From an uncultured Oscillospiraceae bacterium (GTDB taxonomy: Bacteria; Bacillota; Clostridia; Oscillospirales; Oscillospiraceae): DNA of 64,000 nucleotides. Under the pieces are notes generated by a model. It saw only the letters and a program-made list of their open reading frames with translations. It searched no databases and was not told where the DNA came from. Below, one piece after another: positions 3,320-55,508 of the stretch. The stretch is taken from positions 57,613 to 121,612 of the forward strand of contig CANQCS010000001.1 in the NCBI GenBank assembly GCA_947589745.1. The letters are read 5' to 3'. The number at the start of each line of letters is the position of its first letter. Position 1 is the first letter of the stretch. A program made the position numbers and the translations under genes.

Positions 3320-4465
3320 ATGCTGCTGAAAAACGTTCTGCTCCACGACGCCATCCATCCCCAGCCCTACGCGGGCGGCATCCGAATTCAGGACGGACGC
3401 ATCGCCGCCATCGGCCCGGACCTGGTCCCCCTGCTGGGCGAGGAGACGGTAGACCTGGAGGGCCGCCCGGTCTATCCCGGCTTTGTGGACGCCCACAGCC
3501 ACCTGGGCCTGGACAACTACGGCGTGGGCTTCGAGGGCCACGACTACAACGAGATGGGCGACATGGTCGCCTGCCAGCTCCGGGGCATCGACAGCTTCAA
3601 CCCCCAGGACAAGGCCATCCCCATGGCTCTGGCCGGAGGCGTGACCACCGTGGGTGCGGGCCCCGGCAGCGCCAACGTGCTGGGCGGCACCTTCCTGGCG
3701 GTCAAGACCTACGGCCGGTGTGTGGACGACATGGCGGTGAAGGCCGAGGTGGCCATGAAGTGCGCCTTCGGCGAGAACCCCAAGCGCTGCTACCGGGACA
3801 AGGGCGACTCCGCCCGGATGACCACCGCCGCCAAGCTGCGGGAGATGCTGTTCAAGGCCCGGGAGTACCTGGCCAAAAAGGAGGCCGCCGGGGACGACCT
3901 GTCCAAGCGTCCCGGCTTCGACATGAAGCTGGAGGCCCTGATCCCCGTGCTGAAGGGCGAGATGCCCCTGAAGGCCCACGCCCACCGGGCGGACGACATC
4001 TGCACCGCCATCCGCATCGCCAGGGAGTTCGGCGTGAAGCTGACCCTGGAGCACTGCACCGAGGGGCACCTGATCGTGGACGAGCTGGTCCGGGCGGGCT
4101 GGCCCGTGGCCGTGGGGCCCACCCTCACCAACGCCAGTAAGTTCGAGCTGGTGAACAAGACCTTCACCACCCCCGGTATCCTGGCCGCGGCGGGCCTCCA
4201 GGTGAGCATCATCACCGACGCCCCGGTGATTCCCCAGCACTATCTGCCGCTGTGCGCGGGGCTGGCGGTGAAGGCGGGCATGGACCCCTTCGCGGCGCTC
4301 CAGGCCATCACCATCAATCCCGCCAGGCACCTGGGCATCGCGGACCGGGTGGGCTCCCTGGAGGTGGGCAAGGATGCCGACATCGTAGTGGCTGACGGCG
4401 ACCCCATGGTCAGCAGCACCCGCATCCTGGCCGTGTACCTGGACGGGAAGAAAGTGGTCGGATGA
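3320..4465 (+). CDS. amidohydrolase-superfamily metallohydrolase
   Basis: Internal ATG 3320 (MLLKNVLLHD...). N-terminal metal motif GFVDAHSHLG and C-terminal GSLEVGKDADIVV, both typical of amidohydrolase_1 enzymes. Substrate unknown. Confidence 0.75.
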   Translation: MLLKNVLLHDAIHPQPYAGGIRIQDGRIAAIGPDLVPLLGEETVDLEGRPVYPGFVDAHSHLGLDNYGVGFEGHDYNEMGDMVACQLRGIDSFNPQDKAIPMALAGGVTTVGAGPGSANVLGGTFLAVKTYGRCVDDMAVKAEVAMKCAFGENPKRCYRDKGDSARMTTAAKLREMLFKAREYLAKKEAAGDDLSKRPGFDMKLEALIPVLKGEMPLKAHAHRADDICTAIRIAREFGVKLTLEHCTEGHLIVDELVRAGWPVAVGPTLTNASKFELVNKTFTTPGILAAAGLQVSIITDAPVIPQHYLPLCAGLAVKAGMDPFAALQAITINPARHLGIADRVGSLEVGKDADIVVADGDPMVSSTRILAVYLDGKKVVG

Positions 4466-4702
4466 TACTTTTTCTTGAAAGAAAAAGTATCAAAAAGCAC
4501 TTTACGATCGCTCTCAGGGCGTTGCGATACCGGCGTTTCCCACACGGTGACGAAGCATACTTCTAGTGAGAGAAGCGTATCGAACAGAAAAACAGCGGTC
4601 GGGCAGAAGCCGCAAGGCTCCTGCCCGACTTTTTCAATAAAAGGGAAACAGCCGGAAAAATCCCGGCTGTTCCTCTTCTTCTCCATCAATCCGATTTTCC
4701 TA

Positions 4703-6847: not shown

Positions 6848-9829
6848 ATGGTAACATTGACTGTCAACGGAGCACCGATTTCCGTGGAAAAAAATCAGAG
6901 CCTCCTGCGCTTTCTGCGGGATGGGCTGCATCTCACCTCCGCCAAGGACGGCTGCAGCGAGGGGGCCTGCGGCACCTGCACGGTGCTGGTCAACGGCAAG
7001 GCCACCCGCGCCTGCACGGTGAAGCTGAACGAATTGGAGGGCGCCTCCGTCCTCACCGTGGAGGGCATGACCGACTGGGAGAAAAAAGTCTATACATACG
7101 CCTTCGGCGAGGCCGGGGCGGTGCAGTGCGGGTTCTGCATCCCCGGCATGGTGATGTGCGCCAAGGGCCTGCTGGACGTGGTGCCGGACCCCACAGAGGA
7201 GCAGATCCGCCACGCCATCCGCCACAACATCTGCCGCTGCACCGGCTACGCCAAGATCGTGGCGGCCATCCGCCTGGCGGGACAGTACCTGCGGGAGGGC
7301 AGGCTGCCGGAGGAGAAGAAGGACTGGAAGATCGGGGAGAACGTCCACCGGGTGGACGTGGAGGAGAAGGTGCTGGGCACCGGGCAGTACCCCGACGACG
7401 TGTACGTGGACGGGATGCTCTACGCCTCCGCTGTCCGCAGCGCCCACCCCCGGGCCATCGTCAACGCCATCCACACCGAGGCGGCCCTGGCCGTGCCCGG
7501 GGTGGTGGGGGTGTTCACCGCCGCCGACATCCCCGGCAGCGTCAAGGTGGGCCACCTGGTCCAGGACTGGGACGCCATGATCCCCGTGGGCGGCATGACC
7601 CACTACCTGGGCGACGCCATCTGCATCGTGGCCGCCGAGACCCCGGAGGCCCTGGAGGAGGGAAAGAAGAAGGTCCGGGTGGAGTACGAGGTGCTCCAGC
7701 CGGTGAGGTCCCCCCAGGAGGCCATGCTCTTCGACGCGCCCCTGGTCCACCGCTCCGGGAACCTCTTTACCCACAAGCACATCCAGCGGGGCAACGCCCC
7801 CATGGCCATCGCCATGAGCAAGTACGTGCTGACCCGCTCCTTCTACACCCCCTACACCGAGCACGCTTTCCTGGAGCCGGAGTGCGCCGTGGCCTTCCCG
7901 GACGGGGACGGGGTCCTCATCTGGTCCACGGACCAGGGCGCCTACGACACCCAGCACGAGACGTGCCTCATGCTGGGCCTGCCGCCGGAGAAGGTGAAGG
8001 TGAAGAACCTGCTGGTGGGCGGCGGCTTCGGCGGCAAGGAGGACGTGACCGTCCAGCACCACGCGGCGCTGGTGGCCTACCTCACCAAGCGGCCGGTGAA
8101 GGTGAAGCTGAGCCGGGCGGAGAGCCTGCTGATCCACCCCAAGCGCCACCCCATGGAGATGGAGTTCTCCCTGGGCTGCGACGAGAACGGCAACATCCAG
8201 GGCGTGGCGGCCAACGTCGTCGCGGACACCGGGGCCTACGCCTCCCTGGGCGGCCCCGTGCTGGAGCGGGCCTGCACCCACGCCTCGGGGCCCTACCACT
8301 ACGAGAACTTCCAGGTGGACGGCTACGCCTACTACACCAACAATCCCCCCTCCGGGGCGTTCCGGGGGTTCGGGGTGACACAGACCTGCTTCTGCATCGA
8401 GTCCCTGCTGGACGAGATGGCGGATCTCATCGGCATCACCCCCTGGGAGATCCGCTACCGCAACGCCGTCCGCCCCGGCCAGGCCCTGCCCAACGGCCAG
8501 ATCACCGGGCCGGAGACCGGCCTGGTGGAGACTCTGGAGGCAGTGAAGGAAGAGTACGACAGGGCCATTGCCAACGGCGACCCGGTGGGCGTGGCCTGCG
8601 CCATGAAGAACGCCGGCGTGGGCGTGGGCATCCCCGACTGGGGCCGGTGCCGGCTGGCGGTGGAGGGCGGCAAGGTCCACATCTTCGCCGGGGCCTCCTG
8701 CATCGGCCAGGGGCTGGGCACGGTGCTGACCCAGCTGTGCTGCGAGCTGCTGGACCTCCCCGGGGAGGACGTGGTCTACGAGCGATCCAACACCTTCGAG
8801 GCGCCGGACTCCGGCACCACCTCCGGGTCCCGCCAGACCCTGGTCACCGGCGAGGCCTGCCGCCGGGCCTGCGGGAAGCTGAAGGAGGCCCTGGCGGGGA
8901 AGACCCTCGCCGAACTGAACGGAACGGACTACTATGGCGAATATCTGGCCAAGACCGACCCCCTGGGGGCCGACGTGCCCAACCCGGTGAGCCACGTGGC
9001 CTACGGCTACGCCACCCAGATGTGCATTCTGGATAAGGAGACCGGCAAGATCAAGAAGATGGTGGCCGCCCACGACGTGGGCAAGGCCATCAACCCCAGG
9101 TCCTGCGAGGGCCAGATCGAGGGCGGCGTGGTCATGGGCATGGGCTTCGCCCTCACCGAGCGCTACCAGGTGGAGGACTGCAAGCCCACCGCCAAGTACG
9201 GCTCCCTGGGCCTGTTCCGGGCCCCGGACGTGCCGGAGATCGTGCCCATCGTCATCGACAAGCCGGGCCTGGACGTGGCCTGCGGGGCCATCGGCATCGG
9301 GGAGATCACCTGCATCCCCACCGCCCCCGCCATCGCCGGGGCCTACCGCCGTTGGGACGGCAAGTACCGCCAGGTCCTGCCCCTGGAGGACACGCCCTAC
9401 AGCTACAAAAAGCCTGAACCGGTGGTGCTGAAGGCCCCCGGCAAGAAGCTGACGGTGCGGAAGGACCGGACCTGCATCGGCTGCCTGGAGTGCGTCCGGG
9501 CCTGCGCCCGCGCCTTCTACAAGGTGGACGACGCGGGGAAGGCGTGTCTCGCCATCGTGGAGAAAAAGGGCGAGCCCGCGCCGGCGGTGTGCATCCAGTG
9601 CGGCAAGTGCGCCAGGGTCTGCCCCTCCGGCGCCATCACCAAAAACATCAAGGGCGTCTACACCGTGGACCGGCGGAAGTGCACCAACTGCGGCGCCTGC
9701 CGGGAGGCCTGCCCCTTCCACATCATGGTGGACGGCGGGGCCGCCACCAGCAAGTGCATCGCCTGCGGCATCTGCGCCAAGGCCTGCCCCATGGACGTTC
9801 TCGCCGTGGCGGAGGGGCCCAAGGCCTGA
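6848..9829 (+). CDS. molybdopterin-dependent xanthine-dehydrogenase-family hydroxylase. Single polypeptide: N-terminal 2x[2Fe-2S], a Mo-cofactor domain and a C-terminal poly-ferredoxin (XdhD / selenium-dependent XDH-like)
   Basis: 993 aa. [2Fe-2S] motifs are CSEGACGTCTV and CGFCIPG...CRCTGY. The aldehyde-oxidase/XDH a/b hammerhead and MoCo-binding regions include GGGFGGKED. The C-terminus carries four Cys clusters: CIGCLECVRAC, CIQCGKCARVCP, CTNCGACREACP and CIACGICAKACP. No FAD domain is present. Confidence 0.85.
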   Translation: MVTLTVNGAPISVEKNQSLLRFLRDGLHLTSAKDGCSEGACGTCTVLVNGKATRACTVKLNELEGASVLTVEGMTDWEKKVYTYAFGEAGAVQCGFCIPGMVMCAKGLLDVVPDPTEEQIRHAIRHNICRCTGYAKIVAAIRLAGQYLREGRLPEEKKDWKIGENVHRVDVEEKVLGTGQYPDDVYVDGMLYASAVRSAHPRAIVNAIHTEAALAVPGVVGVFTAADIPGSVKVGHLVQDWDAMIPVGGMTHYLGDAICIVAAETPEALEEGKKKVRVEYEVLQPVRSPQEAMLFDAPLVHRSGNLFTHKHIQRGNAPMAIAMSKYVLTRSFYTPYTEHAFLEPECAVAFPDGDGVLIWSTDQGAYDTQHETCLMLGLPPEKVKVKNLLVGGGFGGKEDVTVQHHAALVAYLTKRPVKVKLSRAESLLIHPKRHPMEMEFSLGCDENGNIQGVAANVVADTGAYASLGGPVLERACTHASGPYHYENFQVDGYAYYTNNPPSGAFRGFGVTQTCFCIESLLDEMADLIGITPWEIRYRNAVRPGQALPNGQITGPETGLVETLEAVKEEYDRAIANGDPVGVACAMKNAGVGVGIPDWGRCRLAVEGGKVHIFAGASCIGQGLGTVLTQLCCELLDLPGEDVVYERSNTFEAPDSGTTSGSRQTLVTGEACRRACGKLKEALAGKTLAELNGTDYYGEYLAKTDPLGADVPNPVSHVAYGYATQMCILDKETGKIKKMVAAHDVGKAINPRSCEGQIEGGVVMGMGFALTERYQVEDCKPTAKYGSLGLFRAPDVPEIVPIVIDKPGLDVACGAIGIGEITCIPTAPAIAGAYRRWDGKYRQVLPLEDTPYSYKKPEPVVLKAPGKKLTVRKDRTCIGCLECVRACARAFYKVDDAGKACLAIVEKKGEPAPAVCIQCGKCARVCPSGAITKNIKGVYTVDRRKCTNCGACREACPFHIMVDGGAATSKCIACGICAKACPMDVLAVAEGPKA

Positions 9830-13707: not shown

Positions 13708-13753
13708 ATGGCTGCCGGCCAGCAGAAATGATTATCCCTATGGACAGGGGGAT

Positions 13754-14424
13754 GGGGGCCTCCGGCCCCCACCGGGTCTGATGGGCACCCCCAATGGGCG
13801 CACCCCTGGGTTACTTTTTGTGCAAACAAAAAGTAACCAAAAAATTGCTTAAGGGGCTGGGGCCCCTTAAGAATCCCCGGGGAGGACGGTTAAGGGCAGA
13901 TGGATGGTTGAACTAGGGGCCAGAGAAAGCTTTCATCGGGGGTGCTTGTTTATTTTTCCGTATTCTTACTGCTGGTTGCTCCGTTCGACTACGCAATTGA
14001 TGGCGCGGTTCTTGTCGAGTCCGTATACGGAAATCTGTCCTGTGCGTAGTGGAACGGAGCAGAACGCAGTCCGATGCGGACCGTATACGGAAATCTACCA
14101 ATTGCGTAGTGGAACGGAGCAACCAGCAGTAGGTCAACGGACAAACCGACCAACGCACCCAATGAGTCCGTGCACCAGCGCTTCAATCTCCTTGGGGACA
14201 TGCTCACTGTAGCCGCAACGCCTCATACACGGGAGCAAGAACGGTTTAGACAAAACCAGCCAAAGGGGGAGCGCAGAACGAAACAAAAATTAAGGAAAGA
14301 TTCTCAAGAAAACCATTCCTGGTTTTCTTGAGTGCACTTTTGGTTACTTTTCCTGCAAGGGAAAAGTAACCCCAGGGTGCACCCATCGAGGGTGCAGATC
14401 AAGTCCGGTGGGGGCGGAGCCCCC
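13754..14424 (+). repeat. interspersed noncoding element, copy A (MITE-like; hairpin-module inverted ends)
   Basis: Aligns end to end with 21497-22165 and with the reverse complement of 27512-28122. No shared reading frame. Ends are roughly 80-nt imperfect inverted repeats. Boundaries are approximate (+/-10 nt). Confidence 0.85.
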
Positions 14425-14499
14425 ATACTCCCATCTAGAGGAAAGGCGAATCTGCCTTGCAAGACTGCAGGAAAGCGGAGGAGGGGGCCGCCGGCCCCC

Positions 14500-21470: not shown

Positions 21471-21496
21471 AATATTCGTATATCGGACTGGGTGGT

Positions 21497-22165
21497 GAGG
21501 GGCTTCCAGCCCCTCGGGGGATGGTAGGGACCTTCGGTCCCTGCTGACCCTGGGTTACTTTTTGTGCAAACAAAAAGTAACCAAAAAGTTGCTTAAGGGG
21601 CTGGGGCCCCTTAAGAATCCCCGGGGAGAACGTTAAGGGCAGATGGATGTTGGGACTAGGGGCCAGGGAAAGCATTCATCGGGGGTGCTGTTTTGTTTTT
21701 CCGTATTCTTACTGCTGGTTGCTCCGTTCCACTACGCAATTGATGGATGGTTCTTGTCGGGCCGTATACGGAAATCTGTCCTGTACGTAGTGGAACGGAG
21801 CAGGACGCAGTACGTCCCAAACCGTATATGGAAATGTATCAATTGCGTAGTGGAACGGAGCAACCAGCAGTCGGACAACGTAAAAAACGACCAACGCACC
21901 CAATGGGTCCCTGCACCAGCGCTTCAATCCCCTTGGGGACATACTTCCTGTAGCCGCAACGCCTCATACACGGGAGCAAGAACAGTTTAGACCAAACCAA
22001 CCAAAGGGCGAGCGCAAAACCAAACAAAAAAATAAGGAAAGATTTTTAAGAAAACCATTCCTGGTTTTCTTAAATGCCCTTTTGGTCACTTTTCCGGCAA
22101 GGGAAAAGTGACCCAGGGGCGCATCCCTCGGGGTGCAGAGCAGACCTGGTGGGGGCGGAGCCCCC
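21497..22165 (+). repeat. interspersed noncoding element, copy B
   Basis: Same element as 13754-14424, in the same orientation. Starts about 26 nt after the clpC stop and ends about 35 nt before the next ATG. Confidence 0.85.
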
Positions 22166-22200
22166 TCCGCACATGACCGGAATAGAAAGGAGCGTTTTTT

Positions 22201-24951: not shown

Positions 24952-25494
24952 TCAGATGTTTGCGTTGATCACTTTTACGATCTCAGCGATCTCTATATCG
25001 CCATCCACCAGTATTTCAACGATAGGCGCATATCCGCCCTCGTTGGCGCTGTTCGCCCAATAAATTTCGGCCATTCGCAGGTCCTCTTCCTCCCATATCG
25101 TCCCATCAAAGCATTTACTGGCGTCGCCTATAAAACAGTTTCCGCTGGTCTTTATTTTCGCGATTGCATAGGTCGGACGGCCAAGGCGGACAAAATACTC
25201 GCCCCAGCGCTCGGCCTCCTCATATGTTCGTGAAACATATAGTGAGGCCAGGCGGGAGGGATATTGGGGATACTTCTCTTTTCTGATTTTCTCCAGCGCC
25301 AATTCCCTGAGAGCGACATGTACCTCATGGCTCAAGTCCGCGCCCGCATATTTTTCAGGGTTCAGGTAGATATCCTGTACCACGTACAGCTGGGCATATA
25401 CACGCTGGTAGACTCCGTTGGGGTGCTCACTGTCCAAAATGATATGTTCGCCCTTACGTTTGGGAGTATCAGAGATGACATGATAATAATACAT
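24952..25494 (-). CDS. DUF2441-like hypothetical protein
   Basis: ORF 24952..25506 starts at GTG in the track. I prefer ATG 25494 (MYYYHVISDTPKRKGEHIILD...). Low GC. Last gene of a three-gene minus-strand operon. Family name is from memory and tentative. Confidence 0.55.
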   Translation of the reverse strand: MYYYHVISDTPKRKGEHIILDSEHPNGVYQRVYAQLYVVQDIYLNPEKYAGADLSHEVHVALRELALEKIRKEKYPQYPSRLASLYVSRTYEEAERWGEYFVRLGRPTYAIAKIKTSGNCFIGDASKCFDGTIWEEEDLRMAEIYWANSANEGGYAPIVEILVDGDIEIAEIVKVINANI

Positions 25495-25502
25495 TTTCCC
25501 TC

Positions 25503-25802
25503 TCACAAATGAAATTGAGCGTTGTTTCTCTTCAAAAAGTTGATATCGTTCCCATATTCCTGGGCAAGTCCGGGATCGTTTTGCAGGAACCGGTCATACT
25601 CCGTAGGATCGATCCTTGAAATCTTTACTCTTTCATAGATCGACAGGTTCCATGTATGCTTACATTTTTTGCATCTGAATATAAGCCACACGTCGATCAG
25701 GTTTCCGTTGGCGTTTACTCTGAACTTCCCGGAGTTGATAAATTCCTGTTTCTTCCCACATTTCCCGCAGCGGCGATATACTCTCATAGGGCCCGCACTC
25801 AT
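25503..25802 (-). CDS. DUF1062-like zinc-ribbon protein
   Basis: 99 aa. Two CxxC pairs (RCGKCGKK ... RCKKCKH). The start overlaps the upstream stop in an ATGA arrangement. Family name is from memory and tentative. Confidence 0.55.
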   Translation of the reverse strand: MSAGPMRVYRRCGKCGKKQEFINSGKFRVNANGNLIDVWLIFRCKKCKHTWNLSIYERVKISRIDPTEYDRFLQNDPGLAQEYGNDINFLKRNNAQFHL

Positions 25803-26083
25803 AGGCTCTCTGCGCTACCGGCGTGTGCCGCGGCTCTCAAAATCCTCTGGATGCTCTTTTCGGAAAGGGAATACTCATCCGCAAGGGCTTTTACGCAAAC
25901 GCCGCTGATATGCTTCAGGTAAATTTCGGCATTTCTGCTTTGGTAATATTGCCGTGTCTTTGTCTGGCTGCCCCAGCTCTTTTTCTCCTTACATGGGATG
26001 TATATGCTCCTTCCGCTCACATACTGCTGGATCGCCTTTATCAATTCTTCGGGCAGGATATCCTCTGCTCTGACATAGCTCAT
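25799..26083 (-). CDS. CD3324-family / Mor-like small HTH protein
   Basis: 94 aa. MSYVRAEDILPEELIKAIQQYVSGRSIYIPCKEKKSWGSQTKTRQYYQSRNAEIY...SIQRIL resembles the CD3324 family consensus as I remember it. Confidence 0.6.
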   Translation of the reverse strand: MSYVRAEDILPEELIKAIQQYVSGRSIYIPCKEKKSWGSQTKTRQYYQSRNAEIYLKHISGVCVKALADEYSLSEKSIQRILRAAAHAGSAESL

Positions 26084-26658: not shown

Positions 26659-27504
26659 ATGCAGCGGCAAAGGGTTCTCACGGCGGAGCAGCGGGGGACG
26701 CTGTTCGTGTTTCTGGCCGCTGTACTGTACGGCATCGGCGGGCTGTGTACCAAGGTGATCCCCTGGAACGGCCTGAGCATCAACAGCGCCCGGACCATCG
26801 TCTCCGCGCTGGTGATCGGGAGCTACCTGGTGGTGACCCACCACCCGCCGCGGATGAACCGCTGGATCGCCTTGGGAGCGGTGAGCGTCACGGTGACCCA
26901 TGTGCTGTTCACGGTGGCCAACAAGCTGACCACGGCGGCCAACACGGTGGTGCTCCAGTTCACGGCTCCCATCTTCGTGATGCTGCTGTCCATCCTCTTC
27001 TGGCACCGGAAGCCGAAGAAGCTGGACCTCGTCGCCTGCGCGCTGGTGCTGGCGGGGGTGGTGTGCTGCTTCGTGGACAGTCTGGGCGGCGGGAGTCTGC
27101 TGGGCGACGCCCTGGCGCTGATCTCCGGGCTGTCCTATGCGGGGGTGTTCCTTTTGAACGACCTGCCGGACGCGGACCCCATCAGCTCGGTGTTCTGGAG
27201 CAACCTGCTGAGCGTGGTGATCGGGTTTCCGTTCCTGGTGCGGGAGACGGAGTTCACCGCCGTGGCCATCACCAGCGTGGTGATCCTGGGGGCGTTCCAG
27301 GTGGGCGTGGCGTACATTTTAATGTGCATCGGTCTGCGCACCACCCCGGCGGTAACAGCCAGCCTCATTTCCGGCATCGAGCCGGTGCTGAACCCGATTC
27401 TGGTCGCCGTTTTTTATCACGAAACGGTGACTCCGCTGGCCGTTGTCGGAGCAATTATCGTCATTGGCTCCGTGGTGGGGTATAATATTCTTCGTGGAAA
27501 ATAG
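26659..27504 (+). CDS. EamA/DMT-superfamily permease
   Basis: ORF trimmed to ATG 26659, immediately after the T-box terminator (MQRQRVLTAEQRGTLFVFLAAVLYGIGGL...). About 10 TM helices in two EamA-like halves. Confidence 0.8.
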   Translation: MQRQRVLTAEQRGTLFVFLAAVLYGIGGLCTKVIPWNGLSINSARTIVSALVIGSYLVVTHHPPRMNRWIALGAVSVTVTHVLFTVANKLTTAANTVVLQFTAPIFVMLLSILFWHRKPKKLDLVACALVLAGVVCCFVDSLGGGSLLGDALALISGLSYAGVFLLNDLPDADPISSVFWSNLLSVVIGFPFLVRETEFTAVAITSVVILGAFQVGVAYILMCIGLRTTPAVTASLISGIEPVLNPILVAVFYHETVTPLAVVGAIIVIGSVVGYNILRGK

Positions 27505-27511
27505 GGGGTGT

Positions 27512-28122
27512 GGGGGCTCCGCCCCCACCGGGTCTGATGGGCACCCCCGATGGGTGCACCCCCTGGGTTACTTTTCCCTTGCAGGAAAAGTAACCAAAAG
27601 TGCACTCAAGAAAACCAGGAATGGTTTTCTTGAGAATCTTTCCTTAATTTTTTGTTTGGTTTTGCGCTCGCCCTGTGGTTGGTTTGGTCTAAAACGGGCC
27701 AGGGTCCGTGTATGGGGCGTTGCGGCTATGGTGAGTATGTCCCCAAGGAGAGTGAAGCGCTGGGGCGGGGGCGCATTAGGTGCGTTGGTCGTTTTTGTTG
27801 TCCGACTGCGTTCTGCTCCGTTCCACTACGCAAAAGACAGATCTCCGTCTGCGGCCCGAATAGAACCGCGCCATCAATTGCGTAGTGGAACGGAGCAACC
27901 AGTAGTCGGAATACGAAAAAACAATGAGGCACCCCCGATGAAAGCTTTCCCTGGCCCCTAGTCCCAACATCCATCTGCCCTTAACGTCATCCCCGGGGAT
28001 TCTTAAGGGGCCCCAGCCCCTTAAGCAATTTTTTGGTTACTTTTTGTTTGCACAAAAAGTAACCCAGGGTGCGCAGGGACCGGCAGGTCCCTACCAAGCC
28101 CGCCCAGGGGCCGGAGGCCCCT
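27512..28122 (-). repeat. interspersed noncoding element, copy C (inverted; lacks one ~60-nt internal unit)
   Basis: Its reverse complement aligns with copies A and B. It lies 7 nt after the EamA stop and 40 nt before the tyrS ATG. Confidence 0.85.
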
Positions 28123-28162
28123 TAGAACCATCTATCAAGTTAGTAAGGAGAAACGATCTACT

Positions 28163-29389
28163 ATGCAAATGTATGAAGAATTAGTGGCCCGGGGCCTGAT
28201 CGCCCAGGTGACCAACGAGGACGAGATCAGGGCCATGATCAACGCCGGCAAGGCGACGTTTTATATCGGCTTCGACTGTACCGCCGACAGCCTGACGGCG
28301 GGCCACTTTATGGCCCTGACGTTCATGCGCCGCCTCCAGCAGGCCGGGAACCGGCCTATCGCCCTCATCGGCGGCGGCACCACCATGATCGGCGACCCCT
28401 CCGGGCGCTCCGATATGCGCAAGATGCTCACCAAGGAGGACATCGACCACAACGCCGCCTGCTTTAAGCGGCAGATGGAGCGGTTCATCGACTTCGGCGA
28501 GGGCAAGGCCATGATGATCAACAACGCCGACTGGCTTCTGAACCTCAACTATGTGGACCTGCTGCGGGAGGTGGGCGCCTGCTTCTCCGTCAACAATATG
28601 CTCCGGGCCGAGTGCTACAAGCAGCGGATGGAGAAGGGCCTCTCCTTCCTGGAGTTCAACTACATGATCATGCAGTCCTACGACTTCTACTACCTGTTCC
28701 AGCACTACGGCTGCAATATGCAGTTCGGCGGCAACGACCAGTGGAGCAATATGCTGGGCGGCACCGAGCTCATCCGCCGCAAGCTGGGCAAGGACGCCCA
28801 CGCCATGACCATCACCCTCCTCACCGACTCCAACGGCAACAAGATGGGCAAGACCGCCGGCAACGCCGTCTGGCTGGACCCCAACAAGACCAGCCCCTAC
28901 GACTTCTACCAGTACTGGCGGAACGTGGACGACGCCGACGTGATGAAGTGCATCCGGATGCTGACCTTCCTGCCCCTGGAGCAGATCGAGGAGATGGACA
29001 AGTGGGAGGGCAGCGGCCTCAATAAGGCCAAGGAGATCCTGGCCTGGGAGCTGACCAACCTGGTCCACGGGCAGGAGGAGGCCGACAAGGCCCGCGCCGC
29101 CGCCCGCGCCCTCTTCGGCGGCGGAGGCGACAAGAGCGAGATGCCCTCCACCACCCTCAGCGGCGCCAACTTCACCGACGGCCAGATCGGCGTCATGGAC
29201 CTGCTGGTGGCCTGCTCCCTCGCGGCCTCCAAGGGCGAGGCCCGGCGGCTGGTCCAGCAGGGCGGCGTCAGCGTGGACGACCGGAAGGTGGCCTCCATCG
29301 ACGAGAGGTTTGCCCAGGAGCGGTTCCAGGGCGAGGGTATCATCATTAAGAAGGGCAAGAAAGTCTTTCACCGGGCGGTGCTGGGCTGA
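28163..29389 (+). CDS. tyrS: tyrosine--tRNA ligase
   Basis: 408 aa. Class I motifs (GFDCTADSLTAGHF as the HIGH region, KMGKTAG as KMSKS) and a C-terminal S4 domain. Confidence 0.95.
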   Translation: MQMYEELVARGLIAQVTNEDEIRAMINAGKATFYIGFDCTADSLTAGHFMALTFMRRLQQAGNRPIALIGGGTTMIGDPSGRSDMRKMLTKEDIDHNAACFKRQMERFIDFGEGKAMMINNADWLLNLNYVDLLREVGACFSVNNMLRAECYKQRMEKGLSFLEFNYMIMQSYDFYYLFQHYGCNMQFGGNDQWSNMLGGTELIRRKLGKDAHAMTITLLTDSNGNKMGKTAGNAVWLDPNKTSPYDFYQYWRNVDDADVMKCIRMLTFLPLEQIEEMDKWEGSGLNKAKEILAWELTNLVHGQEEADKARAAARALFGGGGDKSEMPSTTLSGANFTDGQIGVMDLLVACSLAASKGEARRLVQQGGVSVDDRKVASIDERFAQERFQGEGIIIKKGKKVFHRAVLG

Positions 29390-54195: not shown

Positions 54196-54561
54196 GTGTC
54201 AAAAAGGACTTTAATGCCGCTGCCAAAGCGTTGCAATTCCTATATTTTTGGCACGGTGACGATATATGGTTCTAATTGGAGAATAATATCAAAGCACAAT
54301 TCCGAAAAAGGACGCAAAGCGAATAAGGATAAACGCGCGGAAAGGCGGCTGCACGCGATAGAATTGCGGGCATCGGGAAAAAGTGCGGCGGAACTGGCAA
54401 AAGCGACAGGTTTCCATCCGGCCTATATCACGCAGCTGTCGGCCAAATACCACAAAGGCGGGATCGAGGCGATAGCAGGAACCACTATGACGGGATACGT
54501 GAAAGCGGTGGGGCACAGGATAGGGGGAAGCCAGATCTACTGTGTGCTGAAAATCGCATAA
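54196..54561 (+). pseudogene. orphan HTH fragment resembling the N-terminus of an IS630-like transposase
   Basis: 121-aa ORF. AIELRASGKSAAELAKATGFHPAYITQLSAKYHKGGIEAIAG looks like a transposase winged-HTH, but no DDE domain follows. Lower GC than the flanks. Confidence 0.4.
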
Positions 54562-54653
54562 CTGGCGGAAAGTCATGCCGCGGAGCAAACACCCGCAGAA
54601 ACAAACCGCGATTTATCAGGACGAAATGCGCAGAGAGGCTCAAGCGCAAACGG

Positions 54654-55407
54654 ATGCGGCCAGAGATGCGACTGAGAGCGGAAGACGAGCAGCGGCATCC
54701 CATGACGCGAACAGGCAGGAGCAGCATTTTCTCTGGCTTGGTATACTGCGGCGACTGCGGCGCGAAGATGCAGTGCGGCTCGTCCGACAATGGCGACCCC
54801 AGGCAGGACTTTTTCGATTGTGCTGTCCACCGCAAGCACAAGGAGAAATGCCCCGCGCACTTTATGCGGGCATCGGTGTTGGAACGGGTAGTCCTGAAGC
54901 ACGTCCAGGCGGCCACGGATCACATCCTGCGCTATGAAGATCATTTCAGGGCGCACATGGAGGACCAAATGCGGCTGGAGACGGGTGAGCAGGTCCGGGT
55001 CCGCAAGAAAAAGCTGGAACGGGGTGAAAAGCGTATCGCGGAACTGAAACGGCTCTTCATGAAAATCTACGAGGATAACGCCTGCGGACGGTTGAGCGAC
55101 AAGCGGTTCGATATGCTGAACCAGAACTTCGAGGCCGGGCAGAAGGCGCTTAAGGCGGAGGCCGCCATCCTACAGCATGAGATCGAGGTACAGGAACGAC
55201 AGGATGAGAACATTGAAAAGTTCATCCAGAAAGCCCTGTGGGATAGATACCCTCGACGGGTACGCCCTGCATGAGCTGGTGTCCGCAGTCTATGTGGACG
55301 CGCCTGACAAAAGCATCGGCAAGCGGCGTCAGCATATCCACATCAAGTATGACGGGCTGGGCTTCATCCCGCTGGATGAACTGATGAAGGAAAGGGAAAC
55401 GGCGTGA
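54654..55407 (+). pseudogene. C-terminal remnant of a large serine recombinase (TnpX/TndX-like; zinc-ribbon plus DUF4368), frameshifted
   Basis: ORF 54654..55274 contains FSGLVYCGDCGAKMQ (recombinase zinc ribbon) and IAELKRLFMKIYEDNACGRLSDKRFDMLNQNFEA (DUF4368-like coiled coil). The expected C-terminal end (LHELVSAVYVDAPDKSIGKRRQHIHIKYDGLGFIP) continues in another frame (55177..55407). No N-terminal resolvase catalytic domain is present. Confidence 0.65.
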
Positions 55408-55508
55408 CCGAAGAGGCCACGCCGTCCCTCTAAAAACCCTCGTTTTTAACCAGTTTGAAGTTTTACTGTTTACGGATATCCCGCAGTCCGCCGCCGGGCA
55501 CATTTTCG

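Follow-up and report, generated by a model that had tools for sequence, protein, structure and literature searches.

What is a hairpin-rich, non-coding sequence of 619-700 nt that occurs three times between the genes of a gut bacterium: a mobile repeat, the gene of a structured RNA, or DNA duplicated in place? The question is raised by a 64,000-nt stretch of DNA from an uncultured Oscillospiraceae bacterium (GCA_947589745.1, contig CANQCS010000001.1, positions 57,613 to 121,612 of the forward strand; hereafter the window), in which a reading made from the letters alone (the sequence-only reading) had described such an element as either resembling a miniature inverted-repeat transposable element (MITE) or representing an unrecognised structured-RNA gene. 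We consider it probable (about 60%) that the three copies belong to a new family of mobile repeats that resemble MITEs, are large and palindromic, probably target TA, are moved in trans and are common to Oscillospiraceae-like bacteria and their phages. The MITE-like half of the earlier proposal therefore stands, on the non-coding and multi-copy nature of the element, its inverted ends and TA flanks, an empty site in the related genome L015 and a further copy in the genome L001.

Three similar non-coding copies occupy intergenic sites

The copies, all of which lie inside 14.4 kb, are c1 (13741-14435, plus strand, 695 nt), c2 (21483-22182, plus strand, 700 nt) and c3 (27504-28122, minus strand, 619 nt), the last of which is inverted. 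Their boundaries were set after inspection at the points where similarity between copies ends, which kept the locations given by the sequence-only reading and moved its limits slightly outward. End-to-end alignment of the three using MAFFT gave a mean column identity of 87%, flanks included, and a repeat search of the window matched c1 to c2 directly and either of them to c3 in inverted orientation, bearing out the claim that the copies align over their full length. Pairwise local identity is 88-89%, within the 85-90% that had been estimated by eye. The shorter length of c3 is due to the absence of one of two internal 60-nt tandem units, of which the MAFFT alignment places one in c3 and two in each of c1 and c2.

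On one side of c1 is the terminator of the xdh 2Fe-2S subunit gene and on the other the 3' end of a convergent helix-turn-helix gene, while c2 fills the spacer between clpC and a gene for a 584-aa CvpA-like protein, beginning 12 nt past the clpC stop codon and ending 18 nt before the next ATG. Copy c3 abuts the stop codon of the EamA gene so closely that its first base completes the TAG, and tyrS starts at 28163, about 40 nt beyond its other end. These gene positions agree with the earlier description of the copies as intergenic and just 3' of xdh, clpC and EamA. A T-box leader of tyrS was considered and rejected, as Rfam returned no match to one; 28123-28162 is all that separates the end of c3 from the tyrS start codon.

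Conservation had been said to lie at the level of nucleotides and not of protein, and this holds. Every frame of each copy contains at least two stop codons, substitutions counted by codon position (24/33/30, 28/26/33 and 29/24/25) show no 3-nt periodicity, indels between copies are all of 1-2 nt with the exception of the 60-nt unit, and a six-frame translation of the element consensus matched none of 5.8 billion proteins. Small size (619-700 nt) is in this way combined with the lack of a transposase reading frame that is expected of MITEs. The copies were also correctly described as less GC-rich than their surroundings, with a GC content of 0.53-0.56 (53-56%) versus 0.63-0.70 (63-70%) in the flanking genes.

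The clpC spacer is empty in a related genome

The CvpA-like gene has many homologues, and comparison of the spacer that separates it from clpC revealed that this measures only 64 nt in L015 (GCA_021768185.1, 79% protein identity) versus 730 nt in the window. Since the site is empty in this related genome, sequence comparison identifies the element as an insertion into intergenic DNA. In L157 (77% protein identity) the 659-nt spacer contains another member of the family, about 520 nt in length, whose end modules face outward and whose interior is unrelated. The same spacer is consequently seen in three states, namely empty (L015:9937-10000), occupied by the window-type element (21471-22200) and occupied by a member of another subfamily (L157:9342-10000), a pattern suggestive of a favoured target or, alternatively, of an ancient insertion since lost from one lineage.

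Four ENA samples contain contigs of this species (L003, L013, L014 and L017) that end or start inside the element, as expected of a multi-copy repeat in short-read assemblies. The end of the L003 contig is identical to the right end of c1, and the contigs L013, L014 and L017 begin inside c2. At the c2 locus of L017, the final 135 nt are 99% identical to c2 and the remainder is approximately 89-94% identical to c1 and c2 while matching no copy, so that this sequence is either the product of recombination between copies or an assembly chimera. L001, a metagenome-assembled genome (MAG) of a rabbit-gut Clostridia bacterium, holds a fourth close copy; at 86-91% identity this copy is as near to the window copies as these are to each other, and it is truncated inside its right hairpin hpA' beside the C-terminus (DUF4368) of a serine recombinase at the contig end (L001:1-215). 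Both L001 and L017 carry a single 60-nt unit, as does c3. The scans of genome and metagenome contigs from which L001 came used the central palindrome of the element as their pattern, and not its end module, and yielded in addition one chance match, L002. A further copy and an empty site, of the sort that a BLASTN-type check had been proposed to look for, were both found, and several copies are accompanied by insertion polymorphism, as in MITEs: three copies in the window, the L001 copy, the L017 variant, the empty site of L015 and the other member in L157.

These comparisons also bear on the simplest explanation of the locus, in which segmental duplication left three copies of an intergenic stretch within 15 kb, with neither mobility nor function. 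Although the confinement of all three window copies to 14.4 kb is what such an event would leave behind, no flanking DNA is common to the copies, one of them is inverted, a copy sits in an unrelated context in another genome (L001), family members occur in phages and in a related species, and changes within stems are compensated (see below). A dead local duplication is contradicted by these observations, and we regard it as very improbable.

TA dinucleotides flank the window copies

A TA dinucleotide is found at all six junctions of the window copies, at 13739-13740 and 14436-14437 for c1, 21481-21482 and 22183-22184 for c2, and 27502-27503 and 28123-28124 for c3, where the first belongs to the EamA stop codon. 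The reconstructed targets CCCTAGAGG, GTATAGAAA and AAATAGAAC (CCC-TA-GAGG, GTA-TA-GAAA and AAA-TA-GAAC) all read TA|GA, as does the intact end of the L001 copy. TA makes up 2.4% of the dinucleotides in the window and is commoner in these AT-richer spacers. As the copy boundaries were also set after inspection, duplication of a TA target is likely from the sequence but not proven.

Each copy resembles an inverted pair of one unit

The left half of the element is 72-76% identical to the reverse complement of the right half, with half-versus-half alignment scores of 29-94 as compared to shuffle means of 5.5-7.9 (standard deviations 3.4-3.8), and each copy, an imperfect palindrome throughout, is best described as two versions of a unit of about 300 nt joined head to head. 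Read outward, the end of the unit consists of a purine-rich GGAWKTC box, a hairpin hpA, a linker of 4-6 nt, TTTTGG leading into a second hairpin hpB, one or two GC-rich hairpins and a G-rich terminus. Folded as single strands, the two strands of the element give z = -10.8 and -12.5 relative to shuffles; because any palindrome folds in this way, whether or not it is RNA, such values are not evidence of RNA.

Within the 64-kb window, hairpin modules are confined to the three copies. The GGTTACTTTT..AAAAGTAACC hairpin has five exact matches in the window versus 0.00 expected, its sixth occurrence, in c2, being a compensated variant, and the right-end hairpin occurs exactly three times. Modules could be located at both ends of all copies, and the stacks of hairpins noted by the sequence-only reading are consequently real. 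Its further statement that the ends form imperfect inverted repeats of about 80 nt applies to c1, whose ends of approximately 75-90 nt are about 80% complementary and provide the terminal inverted repeats (TIRs) typical of MITEs; in c2 and c3 hp1, hpB and the linkers are inverted, while the second hairpin is unlike between the two ends. A covariance model of hpB (R1) matched six times among the three window copies, at each end of the L157 element and at a solitary hpB-like hairpin (4461-4497).

The left end module of c1 (13809-13871) faces outward on the minus strand, with hpA at 13848-13871 (CTTAAGGGGC/GCCCCTTAAG) followed by CAATTTTTTGG and by hpB at 13809-13838, and scores 48 bits with R1. 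Its right end module (14303-14371) faces outward on the plus strand and scores 53.8 bits, with hpA' at 14303-14332, then TGCACTTTTGG, then hpB' with a GCAA loop at 14342-14371. The outermost GC hairpin on the left, GGGGGCCTCCGGCCCCC at 13754-13770, has its inverted partner GGGGGCGGAGCCCCC at 14410-14424. Between the modules lies a long central palindrome (13933-14165) whose 67-nt arms, 13933-13999 and 14099-14165, are 79% complementary and each contain a 24-nt motif, TTGCTCCGTTCNACTACGCAATTG, or its reverse complement; direct units 60 nt apart are found at 14037-14085 and 14097-14145. The right end module of c2 (22045-22113, plus strand) carries compensated stems in both hpA' (TTTAAG..CTTAAA) and hpB' (GGTCAC..GTGACC).

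On its minus strand, the element has two sites at which a hairpin followed by a run of T scores as terminator-like; in c1 this is hpA and its T run on the minus strand. In the inverted copy c3, these sites are read on the plus strand of the window. The right end module (27566-27634, minus strand) is terminator-like on the plus strand, where the reverse complement of hpA' is followed by a T-rich tail (27605-27634) just after EamA, and in the left end module (28002-28064), which faces outward toward tyrS on the plus strand, hpA and its T run (28002-28025) are likewise terminator-like and are followed by hpB at 28035-28064.

The end module recurs in gut phages

Scans of IMG/VR using the hpB hairpin pattern, and of INPHARED using a phage member, revealed that the hairpin ends belong to a wider three-hairpin module than the window copies had disclosed. 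It is present in at least 15 high-GC gut phage contigs as single modules, tandem copies or inverted pairs, and often lies upstream of the major capsid gene. In L018 an inverted pair about 430 nt apart, with a 44-nt TIR, is found between terL and a virion protein gene, while in the related phage L028 the module occupies a different gap, between the virion protein gene and the capsid gene. Complete elements of about 470 nt with both modules are present in L036 and L060, inverted 24-nt termini 382 nt apart in L051, and single modules in L037, L043, L040, L057, L044 and L050. Direct or tandem copies occur in L054 and MT837065 (L156), where two to three modules flank the major capsid gene or form a repeat of about 487 nt (L054:1-2400; MT837065.1:7650-8290). 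Modules are common to the subfamilies and interiors are not conserved between them. In a group of phages with a phrog_1357 capsid, the module is located 250-320 nt upstream of the capsid ATG in the sense orientation. Intergenic regions of the same phages also contain several instances of another GC-rich hairpin repeat, GGGGCGGACAGAG..GTCCGCCCCTACG, that is unrelated to the module (L037:7520-8080; L054, L036 and L051).

Stems are maintained by compensatory change and contain few G·U pairs

In the set of hpB instances, which were filtered for pairing at four positions and are to that extent biased, 95.3% of cells are paired and 6 of 13 pairs have changed on both sides. There are 46 compensated cells versus 13.3 ± 3.0 in shuffles, none of 500 shuffles reaching the observed number, and in slid controls the paired fraction falls to 38-63%. 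The three loop-proximal pairs were not filtered, and they covary strongly (GC 12, CG 7, UA 4; CG 9, UA 7, GC 4). The 14 hpA variants are without exception perfect Watson-Crick stems, 8-13 bp long; positions 1-3 show three pair types, and G·U is absent from the approximately 130 pairs. Compensation is also evident within the window, where at least four fully compensated pairs (hp1, one; hpA', two; hpB', one) set c2 apart from c1 and c3. Every G·U cell of hpB falls on the outward strand, and the outer 12 pairs contain no A·C cells. In members of the Clostridia type, G·U is restricted to terminal or loop-closing pairs; internal U·G is contributed by a group of proteobacterial prophage ends whose homology is uncertain. 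Stems that contain almost no G·U point to a DNA palindrome more than to a typical RNA.

The same stems are the main support for an explanation in which the end module is a functional cis-acting RNA, such as an mRNA leader or a processing, stabilising or (anti)termination signal. The element would then be an inverted duplicated pair of such signals, or one long structured RNA on a single strand, and its copies would persist for the sake of adjacent genes. Besides the strong covariation of stems across diverged phages, this would account for the one phage group in which the sense module upstream of the capsid gene is retained while its antisense partner decays, for the sense orientation of the L018 and L028 modules upstream of head genes, and for the placement of an outward sense module just upstream of a gene by both c2 and c3. 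Stable tetraloops (GCAA twice, and UUCG/UCCG) on one strand of the window element, and the strand bias of G·U in hpB, are in keeping with it as well. Set against this are the lack of conservation of the interior between subfamilies, the position of c1 between convergent genes, where neither module is sense to a gene, the complete absence of G·U from hpA, which is unlike typical RNA families, the terminal or loop-closing placement of G·U in Clostridia-type hpB, and the bias by which hpB instances were partly chosen for pairing. Moreover, a promoter scan found no sigma-70-type promoter inside any of the three copies, candidate internal sigma-70 or extracytoplasmic-function (ECF) promoters being rejected for wrong spacing, and Rfam 15, with families such as OLE, GOLLD, ROOL, HEARO, group II introns and T-boxes, gave no match in the whole window at the gathering score and only noise on c1 at E <= 10. 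This agrees with the sequence-only reading that the element falls in no known Rfam family; its suggestion of a structured-RNA gene is not sustained, given that no internal promoter was found, the interior varies between subfamilies and the stems are almost free of G·U. We judge a cis-acting RNA to be an unlikely explanation for the family.

A more specific proposal combines RNA or DNA function with mobility. The three-hairpin module (GGAWKTC, hpA, TTTTGG, hpB and GC hairpin) may be an undescribed functional element of gut Clostridia phages, either a cis-acting RNA in the leaders of late capsid mRNAs or a single-strand DNA signal, that is mobile as inverted pairs, seeds chromosomes and rewires the termination or leaders of tyrS and the gene downstream of clpC. 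We put this forward only tentatively and think it doubtful. If the module does act as RNA, it would constitute a new cis-regulatory motif of phage capsid operons. An ssoA-like or Frpo-like single-strand origin or promoter was rejected, its sole support being a loose TAGCG resemblance.

Relationship to known repeats and the question of a mobilising enzyme

In kind the element is like the Correia, BOX and BIME repeats and MITEs of the IS630 type. It has no sequence match to any of these, and each has at least one defining feature, such as a certain target duplication or an autonomous partner, that the window element lacks or shows only doubtfully. Correia elements (CREE/NEMIS) of Neisseria are non-coding repeats of 100-155 bp with 26-bp TIRs, an apparent TA duplication and hundreds of copies; they are intergenic, lie beside genes, form hairpins when transcribed and can carry terminator-like signals, and to our knowledge no cognate transposase has been described. 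The window element shares with them its non-coding nature, inverted-repeat ends, apparent TA duplication, intergenic location and terminator-like hairpins, but differs in its length of 620-700 bp, its composite ends of approximately 100-150 nt with three to four hairpins, its internal tandem unit, its few documented copies and its phage relatives. As for MITEs of the IS630/Tc1-mariner type, TIRs, an apparent TA duplication with an NTAG-like target, lack of coding capacity and insertion polymorphism are common to both, whereas the GC-rich and loosely inverted termini, a size at the upper limit for MITEs and phage members without TA flanks set the present family apart.

BOX of Streptococcus pneumoniae and BIME/REP of Enterobacteria are modular, intergenic, non-coding arrays of hairpin boxes with conserved stems, and the internal boxB of BOX varies in number; BOX and REP units are much shorter than the window element, and REPs are associated with RAYT transposases and lack TA flanks. 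Hairpin modules in variable number and orientation and a variable internal unit (boxB there, the 60-nt unit here) are common to both, while the window element has no sequence similarity to them, is longer, is flanked by TA and is common to bacteria and their phages. A similar balance holds for the PATEs of IS200/IS605 and for REPINs. Like these, the window element is intergenic and near terminators, forms a long palindrome overall and has hairpins just inside its ends, but they lack true TIRs and target duplication and insert beside a specific tetra- or pentanucleotide, whereas its ends are inverted with asymmetric linkers and flanked by TA, and no Y1 gene was seen in scans of the window.

These likenesses raise the alternative of a mosaic of palindromic units akin to REP/BIME or REPINs, dispersed by a single-strand-DNA HUH enzyme of the RAYT or IS200/IS605 type, by recombination or by template switching, in which there would be no target duplication and the TA flanks would be coincidental. 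The modules do occur singly, in tandem and as direct or inverted dimers in variable combinations, the internal unit varies in number, GTAG/TAGCG motifs adjoin the hairpins, clear TA duplications are missing from phage members, L017 combines variants in a mosaic, and the window element and L036 each have one hpB loop sequence (GCAA and AACAGC, respectively) at both ends when a single strand is read. Nevertheless, no Y1/HUH gene was seen in the window reading frames or at the examined loci, the inverted repeats of the ends are genuine and extend to the non-palindromic linkers (TTTTGG/CCAAAA), unlike the ends of IS200/IS605, and TA is present at six of six window junctions with targets that share TA|GA. 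We consider a mosaic of this type quite unlikely.

Other candidates were also discarded. Tn3-derived TIMEs have 38-bp inverted repeats (GGGG...ACGYTAAG) and a 5-bp duplication, and no 5-bp duplication is present at the window copies; the Tn3-like inverted repeats GGGTCTGA, AGTGGAACG and ACGTTAAG in c2 are by-eye resemblances that are non-contiguous and not conserved in c1. There is no Y1-like frame to suggest a decayed IS200, and the 'spacers' of an apparent CRISPR-like array between repeats are themselves repeated. Distant-mode blastn of c1 against PLSDB plasmids and INPHARED phages, and a full-text literature search for the motifs and for phage MITEs in Clostridia, returned nothing relevant, and exact look-ups of the ClpC and TyrS proteins gave no record. 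Rfam likewise had no match to the phage modules, its sole real matches being hammerhead II and TwoAYGGAY in unrelated proteobacterial prophage contigs.

Several findings count against a family of mobile repeats moved in trans. Only four to five close copies are known, and the outermost 10-15 nt of the element are only loosely inverted. A duplication of 2 bp is weak when TA is enriched in the spacers and the boundaries were chosen after seeing the sequences, and the phage members L036 and L051 do not have TA at both ends. In the phrog_1357 group, the module has kept its place, orientation and stems while the opposite module decayed, which looks like selection for a cis function and not only for transposase binding. 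The sequence-only reading noted no adjacent transposase, reverse transcriptase or integrase gene, and indeed no such domain was found among Pfam matches of the genes between 14.5 and 27.5 kb or in 20 further open reading frames of the window; apart from one decayed serine recombinase, the genes scanned with Pfam are metabolic and housekeeping only. Finally, no autonomous partner with the same ends turned up, in genome and metagenome scans that used the interior motif and not the ends.

Taking these points into account, we favour mobilisation of the MITE-like element in trans by an enzyme encoded elsewhere, which would recognise the hairpin-forming ends. The apparent TA duplication leads us to propose a TA-targeting DDE transposase of the IS630/Tc1-mariner type for this role, and phages could transport the family between hosts. 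Once inserted, the element would act as a passive structural cassette of hairpins and terminators. Because the two minus-strand sites with a hairpin and T run resemble intrinsic terminators, c3 should insulate tyrS from EamA read-through, and c2 may have become part of the leader of the CvpA-like gene; with such hairpins immediately before tyrS and before the gene that follows clpC, effects on the expression of both are predicted. As an uncatalogued repeat family of high-GC gut Clostridia (Oscillospiraceae-like) and their phages, the element would aid annotation and explain recurrent contig breaks in short-read MAGs, and a module common to phage late regions and chromosomal intergenic sites offers a handle on DNA traffic between phage and host.

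Other features of the window and of related contigs

Involvement of a large serine recombinase was rejected, as the only evidence consists of a pseudogene 27 kb away and an unrelated insertion beside the L001 copy. The pseudogene (54300-55410) comprises an open reading frame with a Zn_ribbon_recom domain (54654-55274) followed by a DUF4368-like tail in another frame, with helix-turn-helix-like fragments upstream; its third-codon-position GC content is below that of neighbouring genes, and it is probably a remnant of a Tn4451/Tn5397-type element. In L001 (881-2651), a Sigma70_r2 sigma-factor gene is cut at 1198 by a gene for a 482-aa serine recombinase, in the manner of a skin-like intervening element. 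Between c2 and c3, a small minus-strand cluster at 24952-26083 has matches to DUF2441 and DUF1062 and a weak Mor-like match, and may be of foreign origin.

The solitary hpB-like hairpin at 4461-4497, GATACTTTTTCTTGAAAGAAAAAGTATC, is rich in A and U, overlaps the stop codon of an amidohydrolase gene and is followed by AAAAAG. A near-identical motif is present after csrA in L157 (20006-20042), and in both cases an intrinsic terminator lies about 100-170 nt beyond the hairpin; the feature may represent a small transcription unit, or else be related to the end module. Lastly, the ends of proteobacterial P2-like prophages contain three type II hammerhead ribozymes and a TwoAYGGAY RNA (L032:555-625, 1722-1792 and 9605-9668; L041:4323-4394), the latter about 65 nt upstream of a pair of hpB/hpC-like hairpins at the junction between prophage and host.

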